NCBI GenBank assembly: GCA_964608265.1
Contig: CAZSNP010000016.1
Coordinates: 5,566 to 69,565 of the forward strand
Direction: 5' to 3'
Length of the DNA: 64,000 nt
From: an uncultured Anaerolineales bacterium
GTDB taxonomy: Bacteria; Chloroflexota; Anaerolineae; Anaerolineales; UBA6663
Shown here: positions 30,659 to 61,912 of the stretch, in pieces
Position numbering within the stretch: the stretch's first letter is position 1
Layout: each line of letters begins with the position of its first letter
Notes under the pieces: generated by a model
Told to the model about the DNA's origin: nothing
Databases searched by the model: none
The model's input: the letters and a program-made list of their open reading frames with translations, nothing else
Program-made: the position numbers and the translations under genes

Positions 30659-30716
30659 AGAATCTTTCGCCCCGGGCGCCGGGGTGGCCGCGTGGACCGG
30701 GCGTGCCGTGTGAAGG

Positions 30717-33064: not shown

Positions 33065-33108
33065 GCTCGCACCCTATCTTCAATCTGCCAGTAACCCGTA
33101 ACCAGGAA

Positions 33109-34065: not shown

Positions 34066-34088
34066 GGGAAACCCTTCGTCTTTTGAAT

Positions 34089-34122
34089 AGACCTTCGGGG
34101 TTTCCAAAAACCCCGAAGGTCT
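34089..34122. repeat. REP-like palindrome (15-bp stem)
   Basis: AGACCTTCGGGGTTT-CCAA-AAACCCCGAAGGTCT; same family as 14426-14457. Confidence 0.85.
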
Positions 34123-34146
34123 TCGAACGCAAACGCCGCGATTCTA

Positions 34147-37100
34147 TCACGCAGCCTCGCGGCCAGCGCGCTGGATCAGGGCCAGCGCCAGCATGAACAC
34201 AAACGCCAAATCAACAAGAAAGAATGAATGATCGACCAGCCCGTGCGCGAGCATATCGGCGACGAGGGCCATCAGACCGATGGGTAGAGGCGACGCAGGC
34301 AGCGTCCGGGCGGCACGCCAAAACGCGGCCATCAACCACACGCCGCACCCGAAGCCGAGCACGCCGAGACGGCTGAGGAAATCCAGCACGATGTTGTGCG
34401 GGTGCGAGAGGTTGGGCTCCTGCCACGCAGCGGGCAGGATGTAGAAGCCGCGATACGCATACAGAAAGTTATCCGGGCCGACGCCGAGCAACGGGTGATC
34501 GAGAAACATCCGCCACGCCGAGGCCCACAGGTTGATGCGGAAGAAACCGGTGCCGGATTGCGGGTCGAGGGCGCCGGCGAAGCGCGGTAGCTGCGCGAGG
34601 AAGGGCAGGGCGATGACGGCCAGCGCCAGGCCCGCCGCCACCATCCCCGCGCCGCGCCGCCCCTGCCAGCCGATGATGATCACCGCCAGCGCCGCCGGAA
34701 TCCCGAGCAGCAGCGCCCCGCGTGAAAAGCTGAGGACGATTGCGAGGCCCATCACCAGCGAAGCGAGGCCGTGGAGCAGCCGGCGCAGTGGCGGCGTCGC
34801 CGTGCGTGGCGGCCCGATGACGACGACGGCCAGCGCCAGCGGCAGCGCGCGGCCCAAGTAGAGGCCGAGGTTGTTCGGCGAGCCATACACGCTGCGGATG
34901 CGGGCCACGCCCTCTTCGGTGACGATGAGGTTGGTCTGCGTCGCAAATTGATACAAACCGATGGCGGCCACCAGCACCGCGCCGAGGACGAAGAAGTCGG
35001 CGATGCGCCAAAGAGCTTTTGCGTCGAGCGGAGTGGCGCGGAGTAGAAAGTAGAAGGTTGCCGATCCCAGGAGGACGGTGCGGAATTCGTATACGGCCAC
35101 CGCGCGTTGCGCGGCGTTGGCCGTGCTCAGCGCTGAGACAGTGAGTAGGGCGACGACGCCCCAATCAATAAAGGTCAGCCGTGGACGCTGCCACGCAGCG
35201 CGCTGGCGCAGCAGGGCCGGGCCGTGGCGCACCATCCAGGCGCTGAAGGTCAACCACACCGAGAATTCGAGCACCGACGCGCCGCGCTCCCACAACATCC
35301 GCGGAAAGAGGAAGAACGGGATGAAGACGGCGATGAATGCCAGCGCGAGATCGAGGCGCGCATAGAACAGGATGAAAAGCGCTAGCAGCGCCACGACGGC
35401 GAGGACGAACGACGGCGAAAAGTAAAACAGCCCGGCGCTGAACGCGGTGACGAGGATGGGGACGGCATCGCCGAAGCGACGGGTGAAGGCGGTGACTTGT
35501 GTGTCGAAGGCGAGCCAGGCCGAAAGAAACACGAGGGTCGAAAGAAAAAACGTTGACAGCACCTGGCCCGTGTCGCCGAGGCGCTGCCACAACGAAGAAA
35601 GGCGCTGGCCGACGCCCCCCCACGCCAGCGCGCGGCCCGACCACCCCAGGCCCGCCGCGCTCAACACGCCCAGCGCGAGCAATCCGCCGACGGCGAGATG
35701 GAAATCGCCCGCCGGCAACCGACGCCCCACGCTGAAACCCGCCATCGCCCACTGATCCCACCCGCGCTCCGGCTCGATGATGGCCGTGTGCGCGACGTTC
35801 GGGTCGAGGCCCGAGGCGATGGGGATGACGGCGACCTCCGGCTTGAGGGTGGGCGAGGTGAGGACGAGATACGCGCCGCGCCCGTCACGCGGCAGCAGGT
35901 TGGCGGGCGCGCCGTCCACCGTCACGTACAGATAACCGCGATAGTCGCCGCGCCGCACGCGCAGGCCGAGGTCGCTGCCGTGAAATGCAAACGTGAGTCG
36001 CGCACTGGAGAATTGTTCGGGGATGTCGGCCCCGAGGTCGGAGAACTTCCACGCACCGGTGTATTGCGCAAACGGGTTGGGCGCGGGATAGTTTCCGGGC
36101 GGCGCGGTTACGGGTGATTGGAGGTTGGAGAGCGATTGGCCCAGCGGCGTGAGTTGATTGTTCGTGTCGGCGAGGGCGAAACCCCAGCGCGGGTCGCCGG
36201 CGGGCGCGCTGGGTTGATAGTTCTCGAGCGCCAACGGCCCGGCCCACGGCCACTCCTGCGCGGCGCGTTCGTAAGCGCTGCGGGTGTATTCAACTTGTTG
36301 TTCGGGTGTGGCTTTGCCCCAGGGCGAATCCAATGTGTTCCATCCAAAATTGCTCGCCCAAAGCTGCTTATGTCCATCGCCGTTGCGCACCATCACCTCG
36401 CGCAGGAGCGTGAAGCGCGAGAAGTTGAGGAGGTGCGCATCGGCCTGCCGATCATCGGGCCCGGTGTAGAAGCCGTACGGCTTGCCCGCCGCCGCATCGA
36501 AGGAGTGATGCGCGCCGAGGTCGTACAGTTGCTGCAGATAGAGCAGGTCGCTGATGTTCTCCGGCCCGGCCTCGGTGGTGGGCGCGAGCGCGGCGGCAAG
36601 GACGGTGGCGGTCGGGTCGGCGGCGTGGATGGCGGCGTAGGCTGCCTGTAGCAGCGCACCGTACCCCGCCGCAGACGGCGGCCCGCCCCACGCCGCGCTC
36701 AGGTTAGGCTCATCACCGATTTGGTAAACATCAATCCGGTCGCGATAGCGCGCGGCGAACTCGGCCACCTGTGCGCCATAATAGTCGGCAGGGTGCTCAA
36801 CGGAGGCGGACAGCACGGCGATAATGCTTTTGCCGCGGGCCGACACTGTGTTTACGATGAGGTCGTAGCCGTCATACGGGCTGCGTTTGTGAACGACACC
36901 GGGCGGATCAATGACAAATCCGTGCCGCAGCCAGCCGAAAGACGGCAGGCGATCGAGCGCCGTGTTGATCTCAGCCTCGCTCGGCGCGGGGAAGGCGACA
37001 TTGACTGCGCGCAGATTGGCCGGGCGTGGGTCCAGTGAGGGATCGGGCAGGCCGTCCACCGCTCCGAAGACCTGCGCGCCGCGTTGATGCAGGACGGCGG

Positions 37101-37161
37101 CCAGCCCGAGCAGCGAGCCACACAGCAACACCGCGCTGAGTATAAAGAGGACTCGTTTCAT
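34147..37161 (-). CDS. Fusion protein: N-terminal clan GH-A-like glycosidase domain, beta-sandwich domain, then multi-pass O-antigen ligase/Wzy domain
   Basis: YQIGDEPN, AYAAIHAADP.ATVL, FDAAAGKPYGF and LWASNFGW in the N-half. RIRSVYGSPNNLG, SFSRGA, RINLW, GVGPDNF, HPHN and AHGLVD in the C-half. Confidence 0.88.
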   Translation of the reverse strand: MKRVLFILSAVLLCGSLLGLAAVLHQRGAQVFGAVDGLPDPSLDPRPANLRAVNVAFPAPSEAEINTALDRLPSFGWLRHGFVIDPPGVVHKRSPYDGYDLIVNTVSARGKSIIAVLSASVEHPADYYGAQVAEFAARYRDRIDVYQIGDEPNLSAAWGGPPSAAGYGALLQAAYAAIHAADPTATVLAAALAPTTEAGPENISDLLYLQQLYDLGAHHSFDAAAGKPYGFYTGPDDRQADAHLLNFSRFTLLREVMVRNGDGHKQLWASNFGWNTLDSPWGKATPEQQVEYTRSAYERAAQEWPWAGPLALENYQPSAPAGDPRWGFALADTNNQLTPLGQSLSNLQSPVTAPPGNYPAPNPFAQYTGAWKFSDLGADIPEQFSSARLTFAFHGSDLGLRVRRGDYRGYLYVTVDGAPANLLPRDGRGAYLVLTSPTLKPEVAVIPIASGLDPNVAHTAIIEPERGWDQWAMAGFSVGRRLPAGDFHLAVGGLLALGVLSAAGLGWSGRALAWGGVGQRLSSLWQRLGDTGQVLSTFFLSTLVFLSAWLAFDTQVTAFTRRFGDAVPILVTAFSAGLFYFSPSFVLAVVALLALFILFYARLDLALAFIAVFIPFFLFPRMLWERGASVLEFSVWLTFSAWMVRHGPALLRQRAAWQRPRLTFIDWGVVALLTVSALSTANAAQRAVAVYEFRTVLLGSATFYFLLRATPLDAKALWRIADFFVLGAVLVAAIGLYQFATQTNLIVTEEGVARIRSVYGSPNNLGLYLGRALPLALAVVVIGPPRTATPPLRRLLHGLASLVMGLAIVLSFSRGALLLGIPAALAVIIIGWQGRRGAGMVAAGLALAVIALPFLAQLPRFAGALDPQSGTGFFRINLWASAWRMFLDHPLLGVGPDNFLYAYRGFYILPAAWQEPNLSHPHNIVLDFLSRLGVLGFGCGVWLMAAFWRAARTLPASPLPIGLMALVADMLAHGLVDHSFFLVDLAFVFMLALALIQRAGREAA

Positions 37162-37230
37162 TGCGTGCCGCGTGAAACGCGAAACGTCAGGGCGCGGTTC
37201 CCCTCACGCCTCAACGTCATCCTTCACGAG

Positions 37231-38865
37231 TCACTGTCCCCAGTCGATCTCCGTCGCCAGGCCATCGCCCGTGAGTTGCTGGCTGGCGCCCGTCTCGGCA
37301 TCCACCAGCCACACATTGCCTTGATAGAGGATAGCGACCAGCCGGCCATCGGGTGACCAGGCCGGCGTCGTGCCCGCGTCGAGGCCCGGCTGATCGGCCG
37401 GCGGGAAGAGGGCGCGGATGTTGCTGCCGTCGCGATCCATCACCGTGAGCGTATAGCGGCTGAAGGGCGAGGTGTTGGGGTCAACGGCCTGCAGATAAGC
37501 CACCCGCTCGCCGGTCGGCGACGGCGCCGGGTTCGAGTAGATGCCGGCGCGCGGCACGAGGGTCAGCGACAGGCTGGCGAGCGAGGACAGTGCCGTCACA
37601 TCGAAGACCGGCGAGTCTTCGGCTAACTCAATCCCCAGCGGCGCGCCGTGGGTGATGGTGTACAACCATTCGTTGTCGGCCCAGCGCAGCGTCGGGTACC
37701 ACGCCCAGTTGCTGCGCGAGTTGTACGCCACGAAGCTCGCCAGCTCGGTGCGACTGAACGTCGTCAAATCCACCACCCCCACCGAGTCGGTGCGGGCATA
37801 CGCCATCCGCAGCCCGTCGGGCGCGAAGGCGTAACCGGTGCCCCACCAGCCATACGCGCCGCCGGCGTTCGTATCCACAACCTGCACCGGGTTGAACTCG
37901 AGGCGGCGCGTGCGGGGATTGGTCCCCCACGTCAGCAGCCACAGGTCGTTGTTCGCCTGCCAGTCCACCGGGCCGCGCGGGTTCTTCTCGGCGGTCGAAT
38001 AAGCAATGGTGGGCGAAATCGTTTGGGCCGGCGACCATTCGGCGTAAAGGGTATTGCTCACCGGGATGCTCAACGGTTTGCCGCCGAGCGCGGTGGTGAG
38101 GGTGAAGACCGACAGCGTATTGAAGACGCGGTCGAATTGGGGCGACTGCGTATCGGTGAAGTTGCGGCTAAAGAGCAGGGATTGGCCGTTGGGCGACAGG
38201 TCGAAGACGAAGCCGTCGAGGTCGCCGTTGAGGGTGAGGGGCGTGCGCCTGCTCGAGTCGCCGCGCATCACCCAGGCGTTGCCACCGCTGAGGTAGGCCA
38301 GCGTGCCGGTGATCGGCACTACCGTGAAGCTCTGCTGTGCGCCGACGAAGATGATCTCCGGAACCGGCTCGGCGAGGATGTCGCGCCTGATGGCGCTCCG
38401 GCTGACCTGCACGCCGTCTTCGAAGACGATGCGATACGTGATCTCTTCCCGGCCGTTGACGCCGGCCTGCTGCAAGCGACGCTCGCCGCGCGGCAGGCCC
38501 TCATTCGGGATGACGTCACTGCGATACGGGATGTCGTTTTGCTGGGTCTCGAACGTCTCGCGGATACGGGTGATGGTGACCGTTGCCCCGTCGGTCAAAC
38601 GCGTCTGCGGCCCGGGGTCGAGGCGATCCAGCTCCCCGACGCTGACGCCGGCCTGCGCCAAAAACTCACGCACCGTCGCCGTTTGCGAGAGCGCGAAGCG
38701 GCGCGTCTGCCCGTCAGCGATGACGGCAACGGTGATCGGGGCCGAGGTGGCGGGAGGCGCAGCCGGCGTCGGGACGAGGACAGCACAGGCCGAAAGCAGA
38801 AGGCCCAGAGCACAAGACGCACCGCTCAACCGATATGGGTGCGATTTGAATTGTGCCTTGAGCAT
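37231..38865 (-). CDS. Lipoprotein with DUF348-like and G5 domains and a TolB-like (PD40) beta-propeller
   Basis: Lipobox LLSAC; TVREFLAQAGV..GELD..P; G5 QAGVNGREEITYRIVFEDG...EPVPEIIFVG; propeller repeats SPNGQ, APDG, SPTG, AWSPDG. Confidence 0.85.
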   Translation of the reverse strand: MLKAQFKSHPYRLSGASCALGLLLSACAVLVPTPAAPPATSAPITVAVIADGQTRRFALSQTATVREFLAQAGVSVGELDRLDPGPQTRLTDGATVTITRIRETFETQQNDIPYRSDVIPNEGLPRGERRLQQAGVNGREEITYRIVFEDGVQVSRSAIRRDILAEPVPEIIFVGAQQSFTVVPITGTLAYLSGGNAWVMRGDSSRRTPLTLNGDLDGFVFDLSPNGQSLLFSRNFTDTQSPQFDRVFNTLSVFTLTTALGGKPLSIPVSNTLYAEWSPAQTISPTIAYSTAEKNPRGPVDWQANNDLWLLTWGTNPRTRRLEFNPVQVVDTNAGGAYGWWGTGYAFAPDGLRMAYARTDSVGVVDLTTFSRTELASFVAYNSRSNWAWYPTLRWADNEWLYTITHGAPLGIELAEDSPVFDVTALSSLASLSLTLVPRAGIYSNPAPSPTGERVAYLQAVDPNTSPFSRYTLTVMDRDGSNIRALFPPADQPGLDAGTTPAWSPDGRLVAILYQGNVWLVDAETGASQQLTGDGLATEIDWGQ

Positions 38866-38891
38866 TGTCGGCTATAATCCGCCGTCGCTGG

Positions 38892-39452
38892 CTAACGCGT
38901 GAATTTGCCCGTGATCGCCATTTGCCCGTCGGCGATGGCGAGGTGGGTGACCTTGAAGCCGCTGGCAAACGAGCCGGCGCTGCCCGTGAGCGCTTCGTTG
39001 AGCGTCGTCGAGACGCTGTCGAGCAGCGCGCTGGGAACGGGCAGCGGGCCGAAGTCGGCCTTCTCGGCGGTGAAGACGACGTTGCCTTCCGCCGACACCG
39101 TGACGGCGATGACGATCAGCGCCGAGGTCCTGACGCCGTTGGCCTCCGCCGTACCGTACAACTGGATTTTGCCGTCGCGGAGGAAGACCTGCGGGTCTTT
39201 GAGGATGGCGTTCTCGTTCTCATTCAGCTTGAGGGTGACGAAGGAAGTCAGTTGTTGCTCGGTGAAGGTGACGCTGACGTCGCCGCCCGACGGGACGCTG
39301 GTGGCGGCCTGTTGCCAGGCGTTGGGCACTTCGCCGGCAGCTTCGGTGGAAAACGGCACCGGTGAGGCGGGTGGGGTGGGCCCACCCACCGTGAGATCAC
39401 ACGCCAGGCCTGCCAACGCTAATACCAATACGACGAACAGACTGCGTTTCAT
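38892..39452 (-). CDS. Hypothetical lipoprotein (possibly LmeA/DUF2993-like lipid-binding fold)
   Basis: MKRSLFVVLVLALAGLAC lipobox; FTEQQLTS and ADFGPLPVP; AGGAG SD. Confidence 0.8.
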   Translation of the reverse strand: MKRSLFVVLVLALAGLACDLTVGGPTPPASPVPFSTEAAGEVPNAWQQAATSVPSGGDVSVTFTEQQLTSFVTLKLNENENAILKDPQVFLRDGKIQLYGTAEANGVRTSALIVIAVTVSAEGNVVFTAEKADFGPLPVPSALLDSVSTTLNEALTGSAGSFASGFKVTHLAIADGQMAITGKFTR

Positions 39453-42470: not shown

Positions 42471-43418
42471 TCAAATCCCCGGCTGCACCAGCTTCTTCAG
42501 CTTCATCCCGATCTCGCGCCATTGAATCCTGCTCAGCCCCATGCGCTGCCGGATGCGGTCATAGTCCATCCCGGCCCGCGCATCGCGCACCATGCACGTC
42601 CAGCGGCACATCTCAAAAGAGATGTGTTTGTCGAGGCCGGCGGCCACGGTCACATCTTCCAGCAGGTATTCGAGGCGGCGGGGCGAATACGGGAACACCT
42701 TCTGTTCCGGCGCATATTCGGCGACGTAGGCATTGTAGACGTTGATCCAACTCGTCTCGAGCCGCAGCTTGCGCTCCTTGTACCGATTGCGCGTTTCGTT
42801 GTAGCGCACCCACAGCACCGGCTCCGCGGGGTTGGAGAGATCAATGTGGTTGAGTTCGAGGTTGAGGCACTCACTCTTTTTGATCCCGGTTTGCAACAGG
42901 AGCGAGAGGAGCAGATACGGGCGGATGTCGGGCTTTTCCGCGCGTGCCCACAGGCTCTGGGCCGCCGTGCGCGCGGTCTCGACCTCGGCCTCGGTGAGGA
43001 AGGCGGGCAGGGGGCTGATGACGGTTTGCTGCACGATGGGGAGCGCCGGGTCGCCGGGCAGCACGCCCGCGGCCTCGAGCCAGCGGAAGAACGCCTTGAG
43101 GGAGGTGACGCGCCGGGCGTAGGTTTTCGGGCTGCGGCCCAGTGCCCGTTGCTGCTCGAGCCACTTCTCCAAGTCGCGCGTGGTGATCTGGTTCAGCCCG
43201 CGTCCCCCGCCGAGGAAGGCGGCGAAGAGATTCAGGTCACCGCCAAACGATTTGACCGTGTTCTCGCGCGCGCCCTCACGCCGCATGTGCGCGCACCAGG
43301 CTAGGATGGCGGCCTTCAATGACGAGGCGTCGTGCAGCGCGCTTACGGGGCGTTGTTTGGCGGGCGGCGAGGCTTCAGCGGTCGGCACGCTGAAGAGCGG
43401 CAGTTGCTCGATCATCAC
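42471..43418 (-). CDS. XerC/D-like tyrosine-recombinase-fold protein with degenerate active site
   Basis: SAM-like N-domain (NTVKSF..DL..F, SPKTYARRVTSLKAFFRWL); catalytic domain reads TGIKKSE, SFEMCRWT, MGLS, with no C-terminal Tyr. Confidence 0.9.
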   Translation of the reverse strand: MMIEQLPLFSVPTAEASPPAKQRPVSALHDASSLKAAILAWCAHMRREGARENTVKSFGGDLNLFAAFLGGGRGLNQITTRDLEKWLEQQRALGRSPKTYARRVTSLKAFFRWLEAAGVLPGDPALPIVQQTVISPLPAFLTEAEVETARTAAQSLWARAEKPDIRPYLLLSLLLQTGIKKSECLNLELNHIDLSNPAEPVLWVRYNETRNRYKERKLRLETSWINVYNAYVAEYAPEQKVFPYSPRRLEYLLEDVTVAAGLDKHISFEMCRWTCMVRDARAGMDYDRIRQRMGLSRIQWREIGMKLKKLVQPGI

Positions 43419-43549: not shown

Positions 43550-46500
43550 TCAGGCCTGGGCTTTGGCGTATACGCCGTTGGTCGGCGTGTGCACAGGCAG
43601 GACGACGTTGAAGGTGCTGCCCTTGCCCGGTTCGCTCGTCAACCAGATGCGACCACCGTGCGCCTCGACCAGGGCCTTGGCCACCGACAGACCGACGCCC
43701 GTATCCCCTAGCCCGGCGATGAGAGGCGCATCGGCGCGATAGTGGCGGCTGAAGACGCGCGGTTGATCTTCGGGGGCGACGCCGCCGCCGGTGTCCTTCA
43801 CGGCGATGAGGAGGCCCGAACCGCCGGCGCCGGCTTCGTTGTGCACCTTGAGCATCACCTCGCCCTCCACCCCGGAGGCGTTGCCGGCGTTGCTGAGCAG
43901 GTGGGTGAAGATCTGCCGCAGCGCGTCGCGGTCGGCGCTGACGGCCGGCAGGTTGTCGGCGACATCGAGCCGCAGGTTGATGCCCTTCTCGCGGAACTGC
44001 GCGCCGCAACTGAGGATGGCATCCTCGACGATATCGAAGATGTCGAGGCTCTCGGGCACCAGTTGCAGCGTGCCGGCATCGATATCCGTCACGCGGATGA
44101 GGTCGTTGAGCAGGGCCTCCATGCGCTCGCACGAGGCCTTGATGCGCTCCATGAACTTGCGCTGCAACACGCCCAGGATGCCGACCGACTCGCCGAGCAG
44201 CAAATCCGAATAACCGACGATGGCGGCCAGCGGCTGGCGCAACTCCTGCGACAGCGAGATGATGATCTCCATCGAGGCTTCAGGCAGGAAGGGTCGCGAG
44301 GCCTCCGCCGCCGAGCCGGACGGCGCAGTGAGGGAGGCCTGCATAAGTTGCAGTTGCTGTTCCTTGTCGGCCAGGTCTTTCTGTACCAGGGTGAGGGCGT
44401 GCGTTTGATTGGAAAGCTCGGCCAGCGCCGCCATGGCGTCGGTCAATTCGCGTTCCTTGGTCGCCAACTGCGTCTGCGAGGTGCGCAGGGCCGCTTGCAC
44501 CTCGGCCAATTGCGCGCGCGCGGCTTGCGCCTCGGCTGTGCCGGCCTGGGCCTCCGCCAGTTGCTGATCCTTGCGCGCCAGCGCCGCCTGGGCCTCCGCG
44601 AACTGCGCCCGCATCGTTTCGAATTGCGCCTGCAACCCGGCCAGCTGCGTCATCTGTGCAGCGGCGGCCAGGGCAGCGGCGAGTTCGCCCTCTTTGGTTG
44701 CGAGCAGGGCCCGGGTCTGAGCGAGTTCGGCGTGAGCGGCTTGCAAGCGCGCCTCGGCCTCGGAGGTGGCGCTGCCTTTCCCGGTCAGCCGCTCGATCTC
44801 GAGCCGGGCCTGCTCCAGGTCAGCCCGCAAGCCCTGTTCCTGTTGCACCACAAAATCGTAATCGAGCTGAAGGGTATCGGCGTGAGCTTGCTGAGCTTCG
44901 AGCTTTTCGCGCAGTTCGGTGATTTCGACTTCGAGGGCGGCGCGCGCCTCGGCCAGCGGCTTGGTCTTCTCTTTGACCTCGGAGTGCGCCGCGGCCAATT
45001 CCTGTTGGGCGCGCTCGTACCGTTCGCGCCACTCGGCGGCGGCCTGACGTTCCGTATCGAGCCAGTTGGCCCGCAACTGCGTCACTTCGCTTTCGAGCTG
45101 AGTTCGCTGCGTCGTGACCTCGGCCAGTTCGAAGCGAAGCGTCGCCATCTGTTGCGTCAGGGATTCGACCTGGGTGCGCCACTCGGCCGCCTGCGCCTCG
45201 TCGGCCTGCATCAGCGAGCGCAGTTGCTCCAGCTCATCCTCCAGCTCGGCCCGCCGCGCTTCGGCGGAGCGCAACGCGGCCTGCACCCGCTCGATCTCGG
45301 CGGATTGCGTGCTGAAGGCCGAGGCGTTGGCGCGGAACGGCTCGAGTTCCGAGCGGAACTCATTGCGCTGGCGTTCGGCCTCAGCCAGGCGGTCGTTGAG
45401 GCGCTCGATCTCGGCCTGCTGCGCCTCCAAATCCTGACGCTGCGTTTCCAGTTCGAACTCGGCCGTCTCGAGTTTCTCGCGCAGGTCGTCATCGGTTGCA
45501 GTGGCGGCAGCAGCGGCGGCGGCGACCGGCATCGCCGGCATCTCCAGCCGCAGCTGCTGAATGTCCTGATTCAGCCGCAGCGCTTCCGAGCGCGCATCCT
45601 CCAGCGCGATCCGGAGTTGATCGGCTTCGAGGCGGGCGGTGCGCCGCGCATCCTCGGCGGTCGCGGCCTGAGCCTGAACTTTATCGAGGCTGCGCTGCAT
45701 GCGGTTGAGTTTGCCGTCGCTGCTCAGCACATCGGCCAGCGGGTCGCGGAAGGCAGACAGCAATTGCTCGTCGTCGGCTGTCCAGTCTTTGCGCGTCCCG
45801 CCCGGCAGGCCCATCACCAGCAGCGCGCTCACGAGTTTGTCGTTCAGCCGCAGCGGCAGGACGAGCGTCGGCCCGGTTTGCCCGAGGTTGACGGCGTTGG
45901 TGATGCGCCGCACCTCGGCGGCGTGCTGCTCGGGCGCGATGCGAGTGGGGCTGGGGGCCTCGAGCGCGGCCCGCAAGCGCGGCAGGTCGTTGATCGGCAG
46001 CGGCGCGCCGGGCAGGTGTTGCTCCCTGACCCGATGAAAGGCGTTTTGAACCGCGCTCGCGCCCAACTCATCCGGCGGCGCAATCAACATACACAGATCG
46101 GCGCCACTGGCGTGGGCGACGGCCTCGGTGACCCGCCCGGCTAATTCCTCGGCGTTGGCGGCGGTGTTGAGGCCGGACAGCGCGGCGATCACTTTCGGAT
46201 CGAGGCGCGCCCGGGTCTCGGTCGGCGCGCTGGGGGCGGCCGGCGCGGTCAGCGGCGTGGCCTGGGTTACGGTGGCCGACGGTTGCGCGTTGACCCGGCG
46301 ATAGACGAGCGCCGCGAAGAGCGGCATCGCAATGAGTTCGAGATAGCGAACCGCAAACGGGAACTGCGCCTCGGGTTCGAATTTCAGCGAGTGAAAGACG
46401 TAACCGGGCAGCAGCACCACCAGCACGGCCAGCCCGAGGGGCCAGTTGTCCCGGCGGCGAACGGCGATCAACAATCCACCGGCTACGATGAATACGATAT

Positions 46501-46999
46501 GGGCGAGGAGCCAGCCGCTCTCCCACACGTTATTGGGGTTGGTGTAATACCCGAGGCCGCGATAATCGTTGTTGGCCCAGGCCAGCGCGCTGACCACTCC
46601 GACGGTGAGTGTCAGCAGGCTCAGCCCGAACAAGAGCAGAATATCCGCCCAGCGATCGGCCTGAGGAAAGGCGGCGATCCACACGATCAGCAGCAGGGCC
46701 AGGGCGCTGGCCGTGCGCACGAGCACCGGACTGACGAGGGCGCTGTCGAGTTGCAGCGCTCCTCCCCAGCCCAATAAATCCAGCACGAAAGGCGGGAGCA
46801 GCGCGGCGAGGGCAAGCAGAAACAATCCGATCGCGGCGAACGCCAGACGGGCGCTCACCCAGTTGCGGTCGCGCCACCAGCCGCTGAGGGCGATGGCCGA
46901 GGCCATGCCCAGGACAAAAATCAGGGCGTAGTGATAGAGAAGGCTGAGGGGGAATTCGCCGATCTCGGCGAGGAGGGTAGTCAGGGCTTCAGCCGACAT
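43550..46999 (-). CDS. Membrane sensor histidine-kinase-like protein: about 7 TM, GAF-like domain, long coiled coil, HisKA-like (His replaced by Gln) and HATPase_c
   Basis: H-box SQELRQPL; N-box LLSNA; G1 DTGGG; G2 GVGLSVAK; AHGGRIW. Ala/Glu/Gln/Leu/Arg heptad-rich region at residues ~430-890. Confidence 0.9.
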   Translation of the reverse strand: MSAEALTTLLAEIGEFPLSLLYHYALIFVLGMASAIALSGWWRDRNWVSARLAFAAIGLFLLALAALLPPFVLDLLGWGGALQLDSALVSPVLVRTASALALLLIVWIAAFPQADRWADILLLFGLSLLTLTVGVVSALAWANNDYRGLGYYTNPNNVWESGWLLAHIVFIVAGGLLIAVRRRDNWPLGLAVLVVLLPGYVFHSLKFEPEAQFPFAVRYLELIAMPLFAALVYRRVNAQPSATVTQATPLTAPAAPSAPTETRARLDPKVIAALSGLNTAANAEELAGRVTEAVAHASGADLCMLIAPPDELGASAVQNAFHRVREQHLPGAPLPINDLPRLRAALEAPSPTRIAPEQHAAEVRRITNAVNLGQTGPTLVLPLRLNDKLVSALLVMGLPGGTRKDWTADDEQLLSAFRDPLADVLSSDGKLNRMQRSLDKVQAQAATAEDARRTARLEADQLRIALEDARSEALRLNQDIQQLRLEMPAMPVAAAAAAATATDDDLREKLETAEFELETQRQDLEAQQAEIERLNDRLAEAERQRNEFRSELEPFRANASAFSTQSAEIERVQAALRSAEARRAELEDELEQLRSLMQADEAQAAEWRTQVESLTQQMATLRFELAEVTTQRTQLESEVTQLRANWLDTERQAAAEWRERYERAQQELAAAHSEVKEKTKPLAEARAALEVEITELREKLEAQQAHADTLQLDYDFVVQQEQGLRADLEQARLEIERLTGKGSATSEAEARLQAAHAELAQTRALLATKEGELAAALAAAAQMTQLAGLQAQFETMRAQFAEAQAALARKDQQLAEAQAGTAEAQAARAQLAEVQAALRTSQTQLATKERELTDAMAALAELSNQTHALTLVQKDLADKEQQLQLMQASLTAPSGSAAEASRPFLPEASMEIIISLSQELRQPLAAIVGYSDLLLGESVGILGVLQRKFMERIKASCERMEALLNDLIRVTDIDAGTLQLVPESLDIFDIVEDAILSCGAQFREKGINLRLDVADNLPAVSADRDALRQIFTHLLSNAGNASGVEGEVMLKVHNEAGAGGSGLLIAVKDTGGGVAPEDQPRVFSRHYRADAPLIAGLGDTGVGLSVAKALVEAHGGRIWLTSEPGKGSTFNVVLPVHTPTNGVYAKAQA

Positions 47000-47215: not shown

Positions 47216-47815
47216 ATGAGTGCCGACAGGCCCCCGGCCGAACTTGACCAATGGATCCGACGCGGCTCAGCCGGCGAAGAGCCGGCCTGCGCGGCGCTGT
47301 TCGATCATTACTATCCGCAGGTCTTTCGGCTGTCGTTGGGCCTCCTCAACGATTGGCACGACGCCGAGGAAGTTGCGCAGGACACGTTCGTGTACGCGCT
47401 GAAGAACCTGGCCCGCTACGACGCCACCCGCTCAGCCTTCCGCACGTGGCTGTTCACCATCGCCCTGAGCCGCTGCCGCAACAAGCGCCGGCGCAAGTTC
47501 TTCGAGCTGCTGCCGCTTGAGTCGCTGGCCGCCGACAGCGTGCCGGTGCCGCGCGAAGTCGAGTCAGCCCTCGACCGGCGCGGCCTGAAGCGACAAATGT
47601 GGCAGGCCCTGCAGGCGCTCTCGCCCCAGTTGCGCGAGGCCGTTGTGCTGCGGTATCTCGGCGAGATGCGCTTCAAGGAAGTCGGCGAGGCGTTGGGCTG
47701 CAACCCGAAGACGGCCGAATCGCGCGCGCGGTTGGGCGTGGCGGCGATCCGCAAACACCTCCGCAGCAGCAGCCTGGGGTGGGAGACGGCCCTGAGCGAA
47801 ATGGCGGCCTGGTAA
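47216..47815 (+). CDS. ECF-type RNA polymerase sigma-70 factor
   Basis: DAEEVAQDTF, FRTWLFTIALSRCRN, LSPQLREAVVLRY, region 4.2 KTAESRARLG. Confidence 0.93.
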   Translation: MSADRPPAELDQWIRRGSAGEEPACAALFDHYYPQVFRLSLGLLNDWHDAEEVAQDTFVYALKNLARYDATRSAFRTWLFTIALSRCRNKRRRKFFELLPLESLAADSVPVPREVESALDRRGLKRQMWQALQALSPQLREAVVLRYLGEMRFKEVGEALGCNPKTAESRARLGVAAIRKHLRSSSLGWETALSEMAAW

Positions 47816-47819: not shown

Positions 47820-48188
47820 ATGAGCTTGCAATCCGACGACCCAACCCTCCGCGTCCTGGCGAGCGCGGTGAACGACATCCACATTCCGGCGCGAGCGGCC
47901 TGGCTCACCGTTCGGGCGACGATGCGAGCGGCAGTCATTCCGGCCCCGCGGCGTTTTGCGCTTCGCTCGGTGATGGCGAGCGTGAGCGCCATCGCTGCCT
48001 TCTTCGTTTTTTCGCAGGCCAGCCTCATCAACGCGCTGGCCGACCCGACGGTGACCGCCGGCTTTGTGCCCGCGCCGCAGGTCGCACTCAGCACGCCGGT
48101 TGCCAGTGTTGCGCAGCCCGCCGCCACGATGACGCCCCAGCCGGGCACCAATGTGGCCCCGATCCCGTTGCCGCCCGATCGCAGCTAA
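47820..48188 (+). CDS. Small single-TM protein, putative anti-sigma factor
   Basis: Starts 4 nt after the ECF stop; one hydrophobic segment and a Pro/Thr-rich tail. Confidence 0.65.
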   Translation: MSLQSDDPTLRVLASAVNDIHIPARAAWLTVRATMRAAVIPAPRRFALRSVMASVSAIAAFFVFSQASLINALADPTVTAGFVPAPQVALSTPVASVAQPAATMTPQPGTNVAPIPLPPDRS

Positions 48189-49017: not shown

Positions 49018-52000
49018 TTGAGAATGACGACAGCAACCTTTGACGACGACAAGACCTCAGTGCTCGACCGCCCGGCGTGGAGCGTGTTGGCGCTGGATTG
49101 GGAGAAGGCGCTCTACGCGGTGCTCATCATCGCCGCCTTCGTCACGCGCTTCTACGATGTCGGCGCGCGGGTGATGAGCCACGACGAGAGCCTGCACACG
49201 CAATACTCGTGGTACCTGTACAAGAACGGCAACTATCAACACTCGCCGATGATGCACGGGCCGCTCAAATTCCATCTGACGGCCTTCACCTACTGGCTCC
49301 TGGGCGACGACGACTTCACCTCGCGCCTCGCCACCTCGCTGATGGGCGTGGCGGCGGTCGGGTTGTGTTACTTCTTCCGCAAGTGGCTGGGCCGAACCGG
49401 CGCGCTGGTCGCCGCGCTGCTGCTGCTTATCTCACCATACCAGCTCTACTACGCCCGCTACATCCGCGATGAGCCGTACGTGATGGTGTGGGGGATGCTG
49501 ATTGCGTTGATGATCTTCAACTACATGGAGAGCCGCGCCCCCAGGTTCCTCTACGGGCTGGCCGCCGTCAGCGCCTTGTTCTACGCGACGATGGAGAGTT
49601 CCTTCATCTATGTCGCCATCGCGATGTTCTTCCTCGGGCTGTACTTCCTATATGAGCTTTTGGTGCTGCAATGGCCCCGGCCCGAGATGCGCACGGCCTT
49701 TTGGGGGTTGATGGCGGTCGCCGGGGTGCTGGCAGCCGTCGGCGTCGGCCTGTTCTTCATGCGCGACCGATTGGGCATCTCGCCGCTGGATGGAGGGCAG
49801 GTTCAGGCGCCGGCCGAGCCGGGGCGGCTGACGCCGGAAGGCGGCCCGATCTCGGCGATGGAGGGTTACGCCGATCTGGCCTGGCTGGGCGCCCTCATCG
49901 CCGGGGCCTTCGCGTTGTGGGTCGTCGTGCGCGCCTTCGGGCAGGAACGCTTCCGCCAATTCGCGGCCATTGACCTCATCGCCGTGCTGGGCCTGTTTGT
50001 GCTGCCGCAACTGGCTGCGCTGCCGGTGCGCGGGCTGGGCTTCAACCCGGTCAATTACAACCCGCCGCCGATGACGGGATTTGATGTCGGGGCGTTCTTC
50101 ACCTCGGATGCCGGTGTGACGGTGCTGGTGACGGTGGTGCTCGTGATCGTTTCGCTCGGCCTGGGGGCGCTGTGGAATCTGCGCGTCTTCCTCATCTGCG
50201 CGGCGATCTTCTACGGCATCTACATCCCGCTCTTCACGACCTTCTTCACCAACGGCGCGGGCCTGGCCACCGGCATGATCGGCTCGCTCGGCTACTGGCT
50301 CGAGCAGCACGGCGTGCGGCGCGGCAGCCAGCCCTGGTATTACTACGCCGTCATCAACCTGCCGCTGTACGAATTCCTGCCGGCCCTCGGGGCGTTGTTC
50401 GCCGGCGGCCTCGGCCTCTATCGCTTGTTCAATCGGCCGCCGGTCGCGGCACCGGCGGATGAGGCTCAAACGGGGCCAAAGTTCCCGGCGTTGCTGTACA
50501 TCGGCTGGTGGAGCGTACTGGCCTTCGGGGCGTTCAGCGTTGCCGGTGAAAAAATGCCGTGGCTGACGACGCACATCTGTCTGCCGCTGATCTTGCTCAG
50601 CGGCTGGGCCATCGGGCAAGTGATCGACTCAATCAACTGGAGTCACTTCCGCGAGCAACGGGCCTGGATCGTGGCCCTGCTCCTGCCGCTCACCCTCGTC
50701 GCCATCCTCGGGGGCATCGGGCAGTTGCTCGGCAACGGCGCGCCGCTGACGGGCGAACGCTCGGAGATTCAGACCGCCGCTGCCATCGGCGGCTTTGTGG
50801 CGGCGTTGGTTGTGGTCGTCATCGGCGTGGCCGGGCTGTATCGCTGGGGCGCGCCGTTGGGTTGGGGCAACGTGGCCCGCCTGGCCACGCTGACGGTCTT
50901 CGGGCTGCTCGCCCTCGTCACCGCCCGCACCGCCTACATCGCCACCTTCATCAACTACGATTACGCCAACGAGTTCCTCGTCTACGCTCACGGCGCGCGC
51001 GGCGTCAAGACGGTGATGGATCAGATCGAGGACATCTCCGAGCGCACCACCGATGGCCTCGGCCTGCGCGTGGCCTACGACTCGCCGGTGGCCTGGCCGA
51101 TGACGTGGTACATGCGCAACTACAAAAATCAGGTTTTCTACGGCGACACGCCCAGCCGCGCGCAACTGCAGGACGTGCCCGTCGTCATCGCCAGCGACAA
51201 AAACGCCAGCCGGGTCGAGACCTTGCTGGGCGACAGCTACTACAAGTTCGACTACATCCGCATGGTCTGGCCGATGCAGGATTACTTCCCGACCGACAAA
51301 TCCATCGGCGAACGCATCTTGACCAGCCTCGGCGACGCGCGGATGCGGCAGGCGCTGTGGAACATCTGGTGGGCCCGCGATTACACGCTGTATCAGGAGT
51401 TGACGGCTGAAACGAACCCGGGCCGGTCGTTCGAACTGGCGCAGTGGCCGATGGCCGACCGGATGAAGATGTACGTCCGCAAAGACATCGCCGCGCAGAT
51501 CTGGAGCTTCGGCGTCGGCCCGACGCAGCTGGCCGTCGAAGTGGAGAAGGATCCGTACCTCGAGGCGCGCCAGACCATCGCCGCGAACTTCATCTTCGGG
51601 GTGCAGGGGCAGGGCGACGGCCAGTTCAACGCGCCGCGCGGCATCGCCATCGGCCCCGATGGCTCGGTGTATGTCGCCGATACCTTCAATCACCGGATTC
51701 AGAAGTATGATGCCGAAGGTCAATTTGTCCTGGCCTTTGGCCGCTTCGGTGATCTTTCCAAGGGGACGGGCAGCGAGGGCGGCACGTTCAACGAGCCGTG
51801 GGGCATCGGCGTGGGGCCGGATGGCTCGGTGTACGTCGCCGATACGTGGAACTATCGCGTGCAGAAGTTCGACGCGGAGGGCCGCTTCGTGCGGATGTGG
51901 GGCAAGTTCGGTCAGGACGGCGCCTTTGACTCGTTCTACGGCCCGCGCGACATCGCCGTGGATGCGCAGGGCAACGTGTATGTGACCGACACCGGCAACA

Positions 52001-52470
52001 AGCGCGTGGTGGTTTTTGATCCAAACGGCCTCGGCCTGACGAGCATCGGCTCGGAGGGCTTTGAGCCGGGGCTGTTCGATGAGCCGGTCGGGCTGGCGAT
52101 GGCGGCGGATGGCTCGCTGTATGTGGCCGACACCTGGAACCAGCGCATTCAGCGCTTCCGCCCGAATGGCGTGGATGGCGAGTACCTGTTCGACACCGAG
52201 ATCAAAGTGAAGGCGTGGCAGGGCACCTCGGTGGAGAACAAACCCTTTATCACCACCGATACCCAGGGCCGCATCTACGTCACCGATCCGGAGGGCTTCC
52301 GCGTGCTGGTGTTCAGCGAGGCGGGTGAGTTCCTTACGACGTGGGGCGACCCCGGCGCCGACAACACGACCTTCTCGACGATCTCCGGCATCGAAGTGGA
52401 CGCCGCCGGTAATGTGTACGTGGTGGACTCCGGCAACCATCGCGTGATGCGCTTCCCGCTTTTGCCATAG
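49018..52470 (+). CDS. GT-C-fold membrane glycosyltransferase (Agl23/TIGR03663-like) fused to a C-terminal NHL-repeat propeller
   Basis: RVMSHDESLH, HGPL, YYARYIRDE, YWLEQHGVRRG.QPWYYY, EKMPWL; NHL repeats FNAPRGIAIGPDGSVYVADT and similar. Confidence 0.88.
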   Translation: MRMTTATFDDDKTSVLDRPAWSVLALDWEKALYAVLIIAAFVTRFYDVGARVMSHDESLHTQYSWYLYKNGNYQHSPMMHGPLKFHLTAFTYWLLGDDDFTSRLATSLMGVAAVGLCYFFRKWLGRTGALVAALLLLISPYQLYYARYIRDEPYVMVWGMLIALMIFNYMESRAPRFLYGLAAVSALFYATMESSFIYVAIAMFFLGLYFLYELLVLQWPRPEMRTAFWGLMAVAGVLAAVGVGLFFMRDRLGISPLDGGQVQAPAEPGRLTPEGGPISAMEGYADLAWLGALIAGAFALWVVVRAFGQERFRQFAAIDLIAVLGLFVLPQLAALPVRGLGFNPVNYNPPPMTGFDVGAFFTSDAGVTVLVTVVLVIVSLGLGALWNLRVFLICAAIFYGIYIPLFTTFFTNGAGLATGMIGSLGYWLEQHGVRRGSQPWYYYAVINLPLYEFLPALGALFAGGLGLYRLFNRPPVAAPADEAQTGPKFPALLYIGWWSVLAFGAFSVAGEKMPWLTTHICLPLILLSGWAIGQVIDSINWSHFREQRAWIVALLLPLTLVAILGGIGQLLGNGAPLTGERSEIQTAAAIGGFVAALVVVVIGVAGLYRWGAPLGWGNVARLATLTVFGLLALVTARTAYIATFINYDYANEFLVYAHGARGVKTVMDQIEDISERTTDGLGLRVAYDSPVAWPMTWYMRNYKNQVFYGDTPSRAQLQDVPVVIASDKNASRVETLLGDSYYKFDYIRMVWPMQDYFPTDKSIGERILTSLGDARMRQALWNIWWARDYTLYQELTAETNPGRSFELAQWPMADRMKMYVRKDIAAQIWSFGVGPTQLAVEVEKDPYLEARQTIAANFIFGVQGQGDGQFNAPRGIAIGPDGSVYVADTFNHRIQKYDAEGQFVLAFGRFGDLSKGTGSEGGTFNEPWGIGVGPDGSVYVADTWNYRVQKFDAEGRFVRMWGKFGQDGAFDSFYGPRDIAVDAQGNVYVTDTGNKRVVVFDPNGLGLTSIGSEGFEPGLFDEPVGLAMAADGSLYVADTWNQRIQRFRPNGVDGEYLFDTEIKVKAWQGTSVENKPFITTDTQGRIYVTDPEGFRVLVFSEAGEFLTTWGDPGADNTTFSTISGIEVDAAGNVYVVDSGNHRVMRFPLLP

Positions 52471-52668: not shown

Positions 52669-52719
52669 TTCGCGCGGCCCGCCATGGGCCATACCCCCTC
52701 AAACCAAAGTGGAGGCCCC

Positions 52720-53859
52720 TTGAAACTTCACGAATATCAGTCGAAGCAACTGTTTGCGCAACACGGTGTGCCCATCCCCAAAGGGCGCGTGGCGACGACG
52801 GCGCAGGAGGCGCGTGATATCTGTATCGAACTCGGCGGCCGGGCGGTCATCAAGAGCCAGGTGCTGGTGGGCGGGCGTGGCAAGGCCGGCGGCATCAAGC
52901 TGGCGAAGTCGCCGCAGGACGCCGAGGACCTGGCGGCGCAGATTCTGGCGATGCACATCAAAGGCCTGCCGGTGCGCAAAGTGCTGGTGGATGAAGCCGC
53001 CGACATCAAGAAGGAGATCTACCTCGGCATCACGAATGATCGCGCGGCGCGCAGGCCGGTGATCATTTGCTCGTCGGAGGGCGGCGTCGAGATCGAGGAG
53101 GTGGCCAGGACCAACCCGGAGGCCATCATCCGCGAACACATCGACCCGATCATGGGGCTGCGCGATTACGAAATCCGCAACATCGCCCTGAGCATCAACC
53201 TGCCGCGCGAACACTGGAAGGCGTTCGGGCAAATCCTGGGCGGCCTGTATCAAACCTATCGCGACACCGACGCCTCGCTGGCCGAGATCAACCCGCTGGT
53301 CATCAACGGCGCCGGGCAGCTCGTGGCCCTCGACGGCAAAATCGTCCTCGACGACAACGCGCTGTTTCGCCATCCCAACCTGGCCGAGATGCGCGACCTC
53401 GATGAGGAGTCGCCGCAGGAAACTGAGGCGCGCAAATACGGATTGAGCTACGTCAACCTTGGCGGCGAGATCGGCTGCCTGGTGAACGGCGCGGGCCTGG
53501 CGATGGGGACGATGGACATCGTCAAACACTTCGGCGGCACCCCGGCCAATTTCCTCGACATCGGCGGCGGCGCGGGCGCGGATAAAGTTGCGGCGGCGCT
53601 CAAGATCATCATGTCGGAGCCGAACCTCAAGGCCATCCTCATCAATATCTTTGGCGGCATCACGCGCTGCGATGAAGTTGCCAGGGGCATCATCGCGGCG
53701 ATGAAGGAGGTCGGGGTGGGCGTGCCGATGGTGGTGCGGCTGGTGGGCACCAACGAGGAGGAGGGCCGGCGCCTGCTGGCCGACGCCAATCTGATCACGG
53801 CGGCCTCGCTGGCCGAAGCGGCCCAGAAGGCGGTCGCGGCGGCGCGGAATCACCAATAA
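52720..53859 (+). CDS. sucC: Succinyl-CoA synthetase beta subunit (ADP-forming)
   Basis: [50 protein letters not shown] start with GGAGG SD. Confidence 0.96.
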
Positions 53860-53907
53860 CGGAAAACTCATAACCAGAGATTGGTTATTGGTTGCCTGGA
53901 CAAACAC

Positions 53908-54768
53908 ATGAGCATTCTCGTCAACAAAGACACACGCCTCATCGTGCAGGGCATCACCGGGCGCGAGGGGTTGTTTCATACCAAGCAGATGGTCGCCGCC
54001 GGCACGAAGGTCGTGGCGGGCGTGACGCCGGGCAAGGGCGGTGAGTGGGTGGAGGGCAACATCCCGGTGTTCGAGACGGTGAAGTCGGCCGTGGAATCCA
54101 CCGGGGCGAATTGCTCCGTCATCTTCGTGCCGGCCAAGTTCGCGCCGGATTCGATTTACGAGGCCGCCGACGCCGGCCTGCCGCTCATCGTCTGCATCTC
54201 CGACTGGCTGCCGGTGCAGGATATGATGAAGGCGCGCCAATACCTCGACGCGCGCGGCATCAAACTCATCGGCCCGAACTGCCCCGGGCTGCTGACTCCG
54301 GGCGAGGCCAAGGTCGGCATCATCCCCTATCACATCGCCAGGCCCGGCAACGTGGGCCTGGTGTCGCGCTCGGGCACGCTGACGTATGAAGTCGTGGCGG
54401 CGCTCACCGCGCACGGCATGGGGCAAAGCACCTGCGTCGGCATCGGCGGTGACCCGGTGAAGGGGCTGAACTTCATTGACGTACTGGCGATGTTCGAGGC
54501 CGACCCGCAAACCGAGAAAGTGGTGATGATCGGTGAGATCGGCGGCAACGACGAGGAACGCGCCGCGGAGTTCATCGCCAGCAAAATGACCAAGCCGGTC
54601 GCGGCCTTCATCGCCGGGCAGACGGCGCCGCCCGGCAAACGCATGGGCCACGCCGGCGCCATCATCGAGGGCGGCTCGGGCACCGCCGAGGACAAGGTCA
54701 GAGCCCTCGAAGCTGCGCGGGTCAAGGTCGCCAAACATCCCGAAGAAATCCCGGGCCTGTTGAGTTAG
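53908..54768 (+). CDS. sucD: Succinyl-CoA synthetase alpha subunit
   Basis: [38 protein letters not shown], phospho-His in RMGHAGA. Confidence 0.96.
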
Positions 54769-55842: not shown

Positions 55843-55858
55843 GCCAGCGGCTGTCTTC

Positions 55859-58087: not shown

Positions 58088-58104
58088 GGGTACTCCTCGC
58101 TGGG

Positions 58105-60531: not shown

Positions 60532-60684
60532 GGGCCTGATTATAACCGTACCTCTTCCGCACTCCGGAGCACGCATCCAACGCTCGGTGAATGAGTGTTG
60601 CCTGGCGTGCCCTGGCGAGGGGCAAGGATTAAGGTCTCCCCGAGTGTATAATCGCTGCGATCCCTCAATTTTTGGAGCGTGTTC

Positions 60685-61896: not shown

Positions 61897-61912
61897 AGTC
61901 GCGCATGTTACA

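Follow-up and report, generated by a model that had tools for sequence, protein, structure and literature searches.

A histidine-less kinase homologue on a long stalk: a member of a large, unnamed family of sensor pseudo-histidine kinases in Chloroflexota

Can a protein that is built like a membrane-bound sensor histidine kinase, but has lost the histidine that should carry the phosphate, still take part in signalling, and by what means would it do so? The question is raised by a gene on the reverse strand (positions 43550–46999) of a 64,000-nucleotide stretch of DNA, here called the window, from an uncultured Anaerolineales bacterium (contig CAZSNP010000016.1). A sequence-only reading of the window had described the product as a giant membrane pseudo-histidine kinase, with a GAF-like domain and a long coiled coil between about seven transmembrane (TM) helices and a HisKA/HATPase_c head. 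The gene is an unbroken open reading frame (ORF) of 1149 codons and, judged by its sequence, the protein is a long-stalk member of a large, unnamed family of sensor pseudo-histidine kinases from Chloroflexota, mainly from Anaerolineae. We put at roughly 0.55 the probability that it is a kinase-dead, and probably also phosphatase-dead, sensor that acts by binding a partner and that is probably linked to the cell envelope.

The H-box of the window protein reads SQELRQP, as first reported. Alignment with the kinase HK853 of Thermotoga maritima places Gln918 at the phospho-acceptor position, occupied by His260 in HK853, and Gln922 at the position of Thr264, four residues further on (H+4), where HisKA kinases carry the Thr or Asn of the phosphatase reaction. 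The whole of residues 900–985 was checked and holds no His, which rules out an alternative His acceptor nearby in the DHp hairpin. Autophosphorylation at the canonical site would not be expected, in agreement with the earlier view of the protein as a His-less pseudokinase of the DivL kind.

The family was delimited with a profile of the N-terminal module, comprising the seven-helix membrane domain and the GAF domain (7TM+GAF), which was searched against 1.84 billion representative proteins (50% identity). This gave 1057 representatives at E ≤ 0.001 and 414 at E ≤ 1e-30, and a search for family relatives gave 1891 clusters at E ≤ 1e-40. Among the profile-search matches listed, 116 family members have an alignable H-box. 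The acceptor position is Gln in 88 of these and His in 4, with R, N, E, S and other residues in the remainder. An acidic residue, Glu or Asp, occupies H+1 in 113 members, and at H+4 there are 93 members with Gln and 13 with Thr. In all of a further 120 relatives of a typical family member, Gln is found at both the acceptor and the H+4 positions, and the three closest relatives of the window protein (75%, 44% and 35% identity) have Gln, Gln and Asn, respectively, at the acceptor position. Conservation of the Gln in orthologues, which the sequence-only reading had proposed as a check, is therefore found across the family. Acceptor Gln codons in 83 motif-bearing ORFs from the fetched loci were CAG in 74 cases and CAA in 7, a count that is biased by the partial choice of loci through the motif itself. 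Ordinary kinases, collected as matches to the window protein's own kinase domain, have His at the acceptor position in 111 of 113 cases, and their H+4 residue is Thr in 95 and Asn in 7.

Further catalytic positions were compared between 114 family members and 113 ordinary kinases. The N, G1 and G2 boxes had all been taken to be intact. In the window protein G1 (DTGGG), the F box (VF) and G2 (GLGDTGVGL) are indeed all present and Asn1037 is kept, but the N box, HLLSNAGNAS, is incomplete when set against the class I pattern N-x-x-x-N-A-x-K-F/Y. The first N-box Asn, found in 110 of the 113 ordinary kinases, is His1033 in the window protein, and the family has H in 56 members, N in 13, R in 11 and Q in 9. 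The N-box Lys (100/113 in ordinary kinases) is Asn1040, with A in 27 family members, S in 15, N in 13 and G in 9, and the aromatic residue after it (F or Y in 94/113) is A, V or C in the family and Ala in the window protein. These losses are family-wide, and the variability of the Lys position makes it look unconstrained. Retained in the family are the Mg-binding Asn1037 (112/114), the G1 Asp (110/114), the G1 glycines (109 and 107/114) and the F-box Phe (110/114), together with the H+3 Arg and the H+5 Pro (109/114 each). Across the family the G1 and F boxes are conserved at 94% or more, and two G2 glycines at only 72–75%.

Of the lost N-box residues, the Lys normally makes contact with the phosphates of ATP. 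The first Asn corresponds to Asn356 of CpxA, which hydrogen-bonds to the H+1 Glu across the DHp–CA interface and whose substitution leaves a strongly kinase-deficient protein (PMC3904827), whilst H+1 is required for kinase activity only (PMC3510030). With respect to the phosphatase reaction, replacement of the H+4 Asn by Gln in CrdS (N375Q) gave no measurable activity (PMC3510030), and in HisKA kinases the acceptor His itself enhances the reaction (PMC7005713). Comparison residue by residue shows a head without the acceptor His, without the H+4 residue of the canonical phosphatase reaction and without two of the catalytic residues of the CA domain, in which the predicted adenine/Mg pocket and the DHp surface are retained. 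The description of an ATP-binding head thus holds for the nucleotide pocket and not for an intact ATP-utilizing module, since the N-box residues are lost and H+4 is Gln.

In the family alignment, conservation is higher in DHp helix 1 and the loop motifs than elsewhere in the protein. The DHp motifs QELRQP, GY, LLLGESVGILG and LQRKFLERI (also found as LQRKFxERI) include many positions conserved at 90% or more, and QELRQP, GESVGILG and LQRKFxERI are all present in the window protein. The four His-bearing members were considered as a possible active ancestral state, and this was rejected because all four also lack the N-box Lys, unlike working kinases; the degenerate CA domain therefore appears to be ancestral to the family.

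A scan for the family DHp motif with one genome per species matched at least 599 stretches, and at least 561 loci were confirmed. The motif and the 7TM+GAF module lie in one ORF in each of the 84 loci with a family gene. All 80 retained loci belong to Chloroflexota, nearly all of them labelled Anaerolineales, Anaerolineae, Caldilineales or Chloroflexota, with one metagenome-assembled genome (MAG) from Limnocylindria. A typical member has ∼780 residues, so that the window protein, though large and long-stalked, is not the singular oddity that the word giant implied. Public labels for these proteins are limited to 'ATP-binding protein' or 'signal transduction histidine kinase', and the counts of two-component systems for Chloroflexota are inflated as a result. 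Literature searches found no paper specific to the family, and the motif string QELRQP was absent from the searchable literature. Pseudo-histidine kinases as such are already known; the 7TM-GAF QELRQP family is a very large, taxonomically coherent and apparently undescribed variant.

The domain order of the protein proved to be as first described. Pfam places HisKA at residues 915–976 (E = 2.8e-11) and HATPase_c at 1023–1136 (E = 8.4e-24). A hydropathy scan gave seven TM segments, and an AlphaFold2 monomer model, built with a 100-sequence family alignment (mean predicted local distance difference test score (pLDDT) 80.7, predicted template modelling score (pTM) 0.41), places the TM helices at residues 19–44, 47–78, 86–110, 116–143, 158–181, 186–205 and 215–237, with pLDDT >90. 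The positive-inside rule suggests that the N-terminus of this domain is outside and its C-terminus cytoplasmic. Residues conserved in the family are Y22, R51, P91, R95, W107, W141, W186, G199, R218 and P226. The module has no Pfam or NCBIfam model, no sequence match in the PDB and no significant Foldseek fold match in the PDB; a G-protein-coupled receptor match (Foldseek rank 36, E = 5e-3) was rejected as a generic bundle match. A linker predicted to be disordered (residues 240–263) leads from the TM helices to an alpha/beta domain. When the N-terminal part was scanned alone, this domain matched the Pfam GAF model at residues 283–417 (E = 2.1e-6, 28.7 bits against a cut-off of 22.4), and a GAF match was obtained for 15 of 26 family fragments. 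Foldseek matched it to the PtsP GAF structures 3ci6 and 3trc (E = 5e-4 to 9e-4, target template modelling scores (TM-scores) 0.58–0.68) and also to phytochrome GAF domains.

Between the GAF domain and the head, a single heptad-rich coiled coil had been proposed for residues ∼430–890. The stalk comprises 465 residues, 433 of them helical in the AlphaFold2 model, and consists of 22% Ala, 14% Glu, 13% Leu, 12% Gln and 9% Arg, with Pro at positions 488, 491, 554 and 681 only. Its local 3.5-residue periodicity is strong (z = 10.6 against shuffles), with none in the TM, GAF and CA regions, and autocorrelation peaks are seen at lags of 7, 14 and 21 residues (z = 5.8, 6.1 and 5.3). The helical, heptad-periodic character is therefore borne out for residues 427–891, but the helix is not continuous: AlphaFold2 predicts segments at 427–486, 503–599, 604–678, 680–739, 744–781, 784–816 and 822–891, with six breaks at 487–502, 600–603, 679, 740–743, 782–783 and 817–821. 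The rod tens of nm long that had been suggested is possible, as a fully extended, two-stranded stalk of ∼433 helical residues might span ∼60 nm, and a folded arrangement is also possible because of the six predicted breaks.

Stalk length varies from ∼100 to ∼1300 residues across the family. The linker between the N-terminal module and the H position is 476 residues long in the window protein, against a family median of 141 and a maximum of 756 among the representatives; the long-stalk proteins are the closest relatives of the window protein. Recent repeat expansion as the origin of the window stalk was rejected, as neither tandem DNA repeats nor a dominant long protein repeat were found by repeat search and autocorrelation. 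A 2026-residue family member with a stalk of ∼1300 residues is encoded in an Anaerolineales MAG (locus L008, 694–6774, forward strand). Its stalk contains no additional Pfam domain and has a 44-residue internal repeat (autocorrelation z = 6.2), an example of how a stalk can expand. Antisense to the coiled-coil coding region of the window gene runs an ORF of 800 codons (43742–46144, forward strand), which looks like a shadow ORF and not a gene, being the GC-rich, stop-poor antisense of codons rich in GAG, CAG and GCC.

In ordinary kinases the His-bearing helix extends upstream into the signalling helix. In the window protein the stalk is followed by the hinge sequence APSGSAAEASRPFLPE (residues 892–907), which is predicted to be disordered, with pLDDT <50 over residues 892–905. 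Of 92 family members, 77% carry a Pro in the interval 8–25 residues N-terminal to the H position, compared with 2% of 104 ordinary kinases, and a Pro or Gly lies in the same interval in 90% of the family and 15% of ordinary kinases. Because the hinge is predicted to be disordered and its Pro is family-specific, the head would be tethered to the stalk without rigid coupling. Such flexibility argues against transmission by piston or rotation movements and would favour regulation via proximity, clustering or localization.

Amongst characterized proteins, HK853 (PDB 2c2a, 3dge and 6rh0) is the best sequence match to the head (E = 1e-32, residues ∼905–1140) and also the best structural match (Foldseek E = 8e-17, target TM-score 0.82), with the same DHp hairpin and Bergerat fold. 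Where HK853 has His260, Thr264 and the N-box Asn and Lys, the window protein has Gln918, Gln922, His1033 and Asn1040, and whereas HK853 has a cognate regulator, RR468, the window protein has no adjacent one. DivL of Caulobacter crescentus (PDB 4q20) resembles the window protein in having HisKA and HATPase_c domains, a non-His acceptor residue, a membrane anchor and no adjacent response regulator gene. DivL is without kinase or phosphatase activity and senses DivK∼P through its DHp face (PMC4211667). Its acceptor position is Tyr and its H+4 Thr is kept (T557 in the numbering of PMC4211667), whereas the window protein has Gln at both. The match between the two heads (target TM-score 0.82 by Foldseek; sequence match E = 6e-24) is confined to the kinase core at ∼30% identity, which indicates that the His was lost independently in the two proteins and that the window protein is not a DivL orthologue. 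DivL is alphaproteobacterial, has DivK∼P and CckA as known partners, and carries PAS sensor domains with no long stalk and no Pro/Gly hinge, in contrast to the 7TM+GAF module, stalk and hinge of the Chloroflexota protein. By this comparison DivL is nevertheless its closest functional analogue.

RetS of Pseudomonas aeruginosa carries a seven-helix sensor module in the membrane and acts by binding to another kinase, GacS. Its head (PDB 6dk7 and 6dk8) matches that of the window protein with E = 4e-18 and a target TM-score of ∼0.7, and it is likewise a kinase-like protein that signals outside the ordinary kinase-to-regulator route, as we propose for the window protein. RetS, however, keeps its His, carries receiver domains and has neither GAF domain nor long stalk, and its membrane module belongs to the 7TMR-DISM family, to which the window module has no Pfam match. 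Chloroflexota GAF sensor kinases, such as the PAS/GAF kinase encoded beside relative P0004, share the order GAF, helical linker, HisKA and HATPase_c, but differ in their canonical His and N box and in having no 7TM module, no hinge and neither of the motifs QELRQP and GESVGILG.

Downstream synteny was counted at the 65 family loci whose sequence continues for 4.5 kb or more beyond the family gene. A gene for a LysM-domain membrane protein lies downstream on the same strand in 53 of these, and in 50 its start is −8 to +11 nt from the stop of the family gene, which implies translational coupling. A gene for an LCP (LytR-CpsA-Psr) protein lies downstream in 58 loci and a gene for an Xer-like protein in 39, with TilS further on and on the opposite strand in 38; at least one of the LysM, LCP and Xer-like genes is present in 63 loci. 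In the window and at the loci of its closest relatives (L001 and L006), the Xer-like gene is directly downstream (39–132 nt) and the LysM and LCP genes are absent. Searches with tblastn found no LysM or LCP homologue between the pseudokinase and Xer-like genes or elsewhere in the 64-kb window.

The Xer-like gene of the window is on the same strand, 132 nt downstream of the pseudokinase gene. Homologues of its product are encoded at L001, L005, L006 and ∼38 other loci, and in 41 homologues the tyrosine-recombinase active site has been lost: Arg-I is Lys in 41/41, the box-II His is replaced by Asp or Glu, the third His by Val, Ile or Leu, and the nucleophile Tyr by Gly, His, Phe or Asn. The C-terminal motif SKIQWRE is highly conserved, and the protein may be DNA-binding. 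One pseudo-enzyme adjoins another here, the Xer-like gene being syntenic with the pseudokinase family.

No response regulator gene adjoins the pseudokinase gene, as had been noted. The window contains a single receiver domain, at a distance of 12.4 kb, and 83 of the 84 loci carrying the family gene have no receiver-domain ORF within 10 kb. A distantly encoded response-regulator partner of the window protein is possible. The receiver in the window is a 134-residue single-domain response regulator (30717–31121, reverse strand), a candidate partner, and its gene is inside an envelope-polysaccharide gene cluster (∼29500–38900).

Upstream, the usual neighbour in other family loci is a gene for a TPR protein. 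In the window, the genes divergent from the pseudokinase gene are those of an ECF-type sigma factor (47216–47815, forward strand) and then a small ORF without a Pfam match (47820–48188, forward strand), possibly an anti-sigma factor. The sigma factor was considered as a conserved partner and rejected, since the pairing is absent from other family loci. His-bearing PAS/GAF kinases are found near the family gene in ∼7 loci and are not conserved across loci. In locus L002 such a gene lies 134 bp upstream of that of P0004 (4283–7867, forward strand) and encodes a 1194-residue protein with one PAS and four GAF domains and canonical HisKA and HATPase_c domains. Kinases of this kind could be partner kinases in some lineages.

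The 7TM bundle and cytoplasmic GAF domain form a conserved input module, followed by a heptad-periodic stalk of variable length, a flexible Pro/Gly hinge and the HisKA/HATPase_c head. On the interpretation that we favour, the head would no longer move phosphate to or from a response regulator, and would act as a dimeric docking module, possibly modulated by nucleotide, whose conserved DHp helix 1 would bind a putative conserved cytoplasmic partner. Docking would be controlled by the 7TM/GAF module via proximity, oligomerization or localization, without the rigid helical coupling of ordinary kinases. The pathway would report on, or organize, cell-envelope assembly, a proposal made because the family gene is usually accompanied in its operon by genes for a LysM protein, an LCP glycopolymer transferase and a dead Xer-like protein, of which the long-stalk clade of the window protein appears to have retained the last only. 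This context points to the envelope rather than to the polar, septal or nucleoid-sensing role that had been suggested earlier. Several considerations weigh against the interpretation. The AlphaFold2 monomer, with a pTM of 0.41, is silent on the dimer, on whether the stalk is extended or folded and on the DHp–CA arrangement. The retained nucleotide pocket and H+1 acidic residue are also compatible with residual or altered catalytic activity, and the ordinary-kinase controls, having been gathered through the window protein itself, are not a random kinase sample. Finally, as the window gene has no LysM and LCP neighbours, its link to the envelope is made via family synteny alone. A bolder extension, which we consider doubtful, is that of a class-wide Anaerolineae module without a phosphorelay, in which an envelope-facing 7TM/GAF sensor, with a silent kinase-like head on a stalk of tunable length and with LysM, LCP and dead Xer-like partners, would couple the status of wall assembly to a cytoplasmic or DNA-level response, the dead recombinase replacing the response regulator as output.

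The strength with which the nucleotide pocket is conserved could instead reflect an atypical but active kinase, whose CA domain uses ATP and whose target is a Ser, Thr or Tyr on itself or another protein, or the His of a partner kinase within a heterodimer. The GHKL-fold kinases SpoIIAB/RsbW and PDK/BCKDK are precedents for non-His targets. Across the family, Asn1037, the F-box Phe, the Asp and glycines of G1 and the acidic H+1 residue (Glu/Asp) are conserved at 90% or more, which is hard to explain without relevant nucleotide binding, and the His-bearing kinase beside P0004, with similar ones near the gene in 7 loci, could supply a partner. However, the near-invariant N-box Lys and the first N-box Asn are replaced, the former by a variable residue (A/S/N/G), the G2 glycines are eroded to 72–75%, no substrate-like neighbour or partner kinase is conserved among the loci, and no family-unique invariant Ser, Thr or Tyr was found facing the acceptor site, the conserved Ser at H−3 saying little. 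We thus regard an active kinase as unlikely. A dedicated phosphatase for a phosphorylated orphan response regulator seems quite unlikely. In such a protein, loss of the His would switch the kinase off, the amide of Gln922 would position the hydrolytic water and nucleotide binding by the CA domain would serve as cofactor. Of the 116 members, 93 have an amide residue at H+4, the helix 1 on which a response regulator would dock is strongly conserved, and there are precedents in the HisKA_3 kinases, where the Gln of HDxxxQ is the key phosphatase residue, and in the stimulation of HK853 and EnvZ phosphatase activity by ADP via the CA domain (PMC7005713). Yet the same substitution in CrdS, from Asn to Gln, left no measurable activity (PMC3510030), the His that enhances the HisKA phosphatase reaction (PMC7005713) is missing, and no receiver gene is linked in 83/84 loci. 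The phosphatase-only model, weakened above all by CrdS N375Q, was retained as a minor rival.

If the protein were mainly structural or cytoskeletal, the stalk would be a spacer, ruler or filament-former in filamentous Anaerolineae and the head a dimerization module without a signalling role. The heptad periodicity of the stalk, its free evolution between ∼100 and ∼1300 residues, partly through 44-residue repeats as in L008, and its uncoupling from the head by the hinge would all suit such a function, but it is the head and not the stalk that is most conserved, with family-specific motifs and a retained nucleotide pocket, and most members are short-stalked, given the median linker of 141 residues. 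A mainly structural role is on this evidence improbable. It can hardly be entertained that the Gln arose through a sequencing or assembly error, with CAC misread as CAG, or that the gene is the decaying pseudogene of an ordinary kinase. His and Gln codons do lie one base apart, but error was rejected because the identical protein P0001 comes from an independent assembly, because Gln recurs in the relatives at 75% and 44% identity and throughout the family (88/116 and 120/120), and because both CAG and CAA are used, whilst decay is at odds with an intact frame of 1149 codons and with domains that are predicted to fold with high confidence.

The pseudo-histidine kinases that have been studied are a handful, such as DivL, and here catalytic loss is fixed in hundreds of species of one class, the poorly studied filamentous Anaerolineae, common inhabitants of sediments, digesters and activated sludge. 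Several features together mark the family: Gln at the acceptor and phosphatase positions, a degenerate N box with a nucleotide pocket, a hinge, a more than 10-fold range of stalk length, and tight operon linkage to cell-wall proteins and a dead recombinase. Should its members indeed signal by partner binding, they would offer a natural setting in which to study chemistry-free signalling by a kinase fold, and a first point of entry to the regulation of the envelope in Chloroflexota.

Table 1. Positions in the window of the pseudokinase gene, its parts and other annotated genes
Feature	Position	Strand	Basis
Pseudo-histidine kinase, 7TM-GAF-stalk-DHp-CA, whole gene	43550..46999	-	ORF; identical P0001, relatives P0002-P0004; family profile search
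Seven-helix membrane domain, residues 19-237	46289..46945	-	Hydropathy, AlphaFold2
Cytoplasmic GAF domain, residues 268-425	45725..46198	-	Pfam, Foldseek, pLDDT ~95
Helical coiled-coil stalk, residues 427-891, seven helical segments	44327..45721	-	Composition, AlphaFold2, periodicity
Flexible Pro/Gly/Ser hinge, stalk to DHp, residues 892-906	44282..44326	-	pLDDT, Pro statistics
DHp (HisKA) helical hairpin, residues 907-975, QELRQP replacing HE[LF]RTP	44075..44281	-	Pfam, HK853 alignment, helices 907-936 and 944-975 (AlphaFold2)
CAG codon of Gln918, phospho-acceptor position	44246..44248	-	Aligned with His260 of HK853
CAG codon of Gln922, H+4, phosphatase T/N position of HisKA kinases	44234..44236	-	Aligned with Thr264 of HK853
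HATPase_c (CA) domain, residues 983-1135, nucleotide pocket retained, N box degenerate (His1033, Asn1040)	43595..44053	-	Pfam, Foldseek, residue comparison
Xer-like tyrosine-recombinase fold, dead active site	42471..43418	-	Pfam Phage_int_SAM_1 and Phage_integrase; XerD/XerA alignment
Glycosyltransferase (cluster around receiver gene)	29504-30658		
GtrA-like protein (cluster around receiver gene)	31105-31695		
O-antigen-ligase-like protein (cluster around receiver gene)	31613-33064		
Wzy_C protein, 1004 residues (cluster around receiver gene)	34147-37161		
G5/DUF348/PD40 protein (cluster around receiver gene)	37231-38865		
Glycogen/alpha-glucan metabolism genes	7628-9625, 17501-19687, 58105-62196	-	

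The window as a whole is rich in envelope genes, with Wzy_C proteins, glycosyltransferases, the G5/PD40 protein and a PMT_2-NHL fusion. The last is a protein of 1150 residues (49018–52470, forward strand) in which a PMT_2-like multi-pass membrane glycosyltransferase is joined to a C-terminal NHL-repeat beta-propeller. Glycogen or alpha-glucan genes are dispersed through the window and encode a debranching enzyme (GDE_N/GDE_C), a DUF3417-phosphorylase and a 1363-residue GH57+DUF3536 protein. Two further ORFs, of 939 codons (55574–58393, forward strand) and 679 codons (52699–54738, reverse strand), have no Pfam match at E ≤ 1e-5. The former is overlapped by an opposite-strand ORF of 742 codons, and either strand could code.

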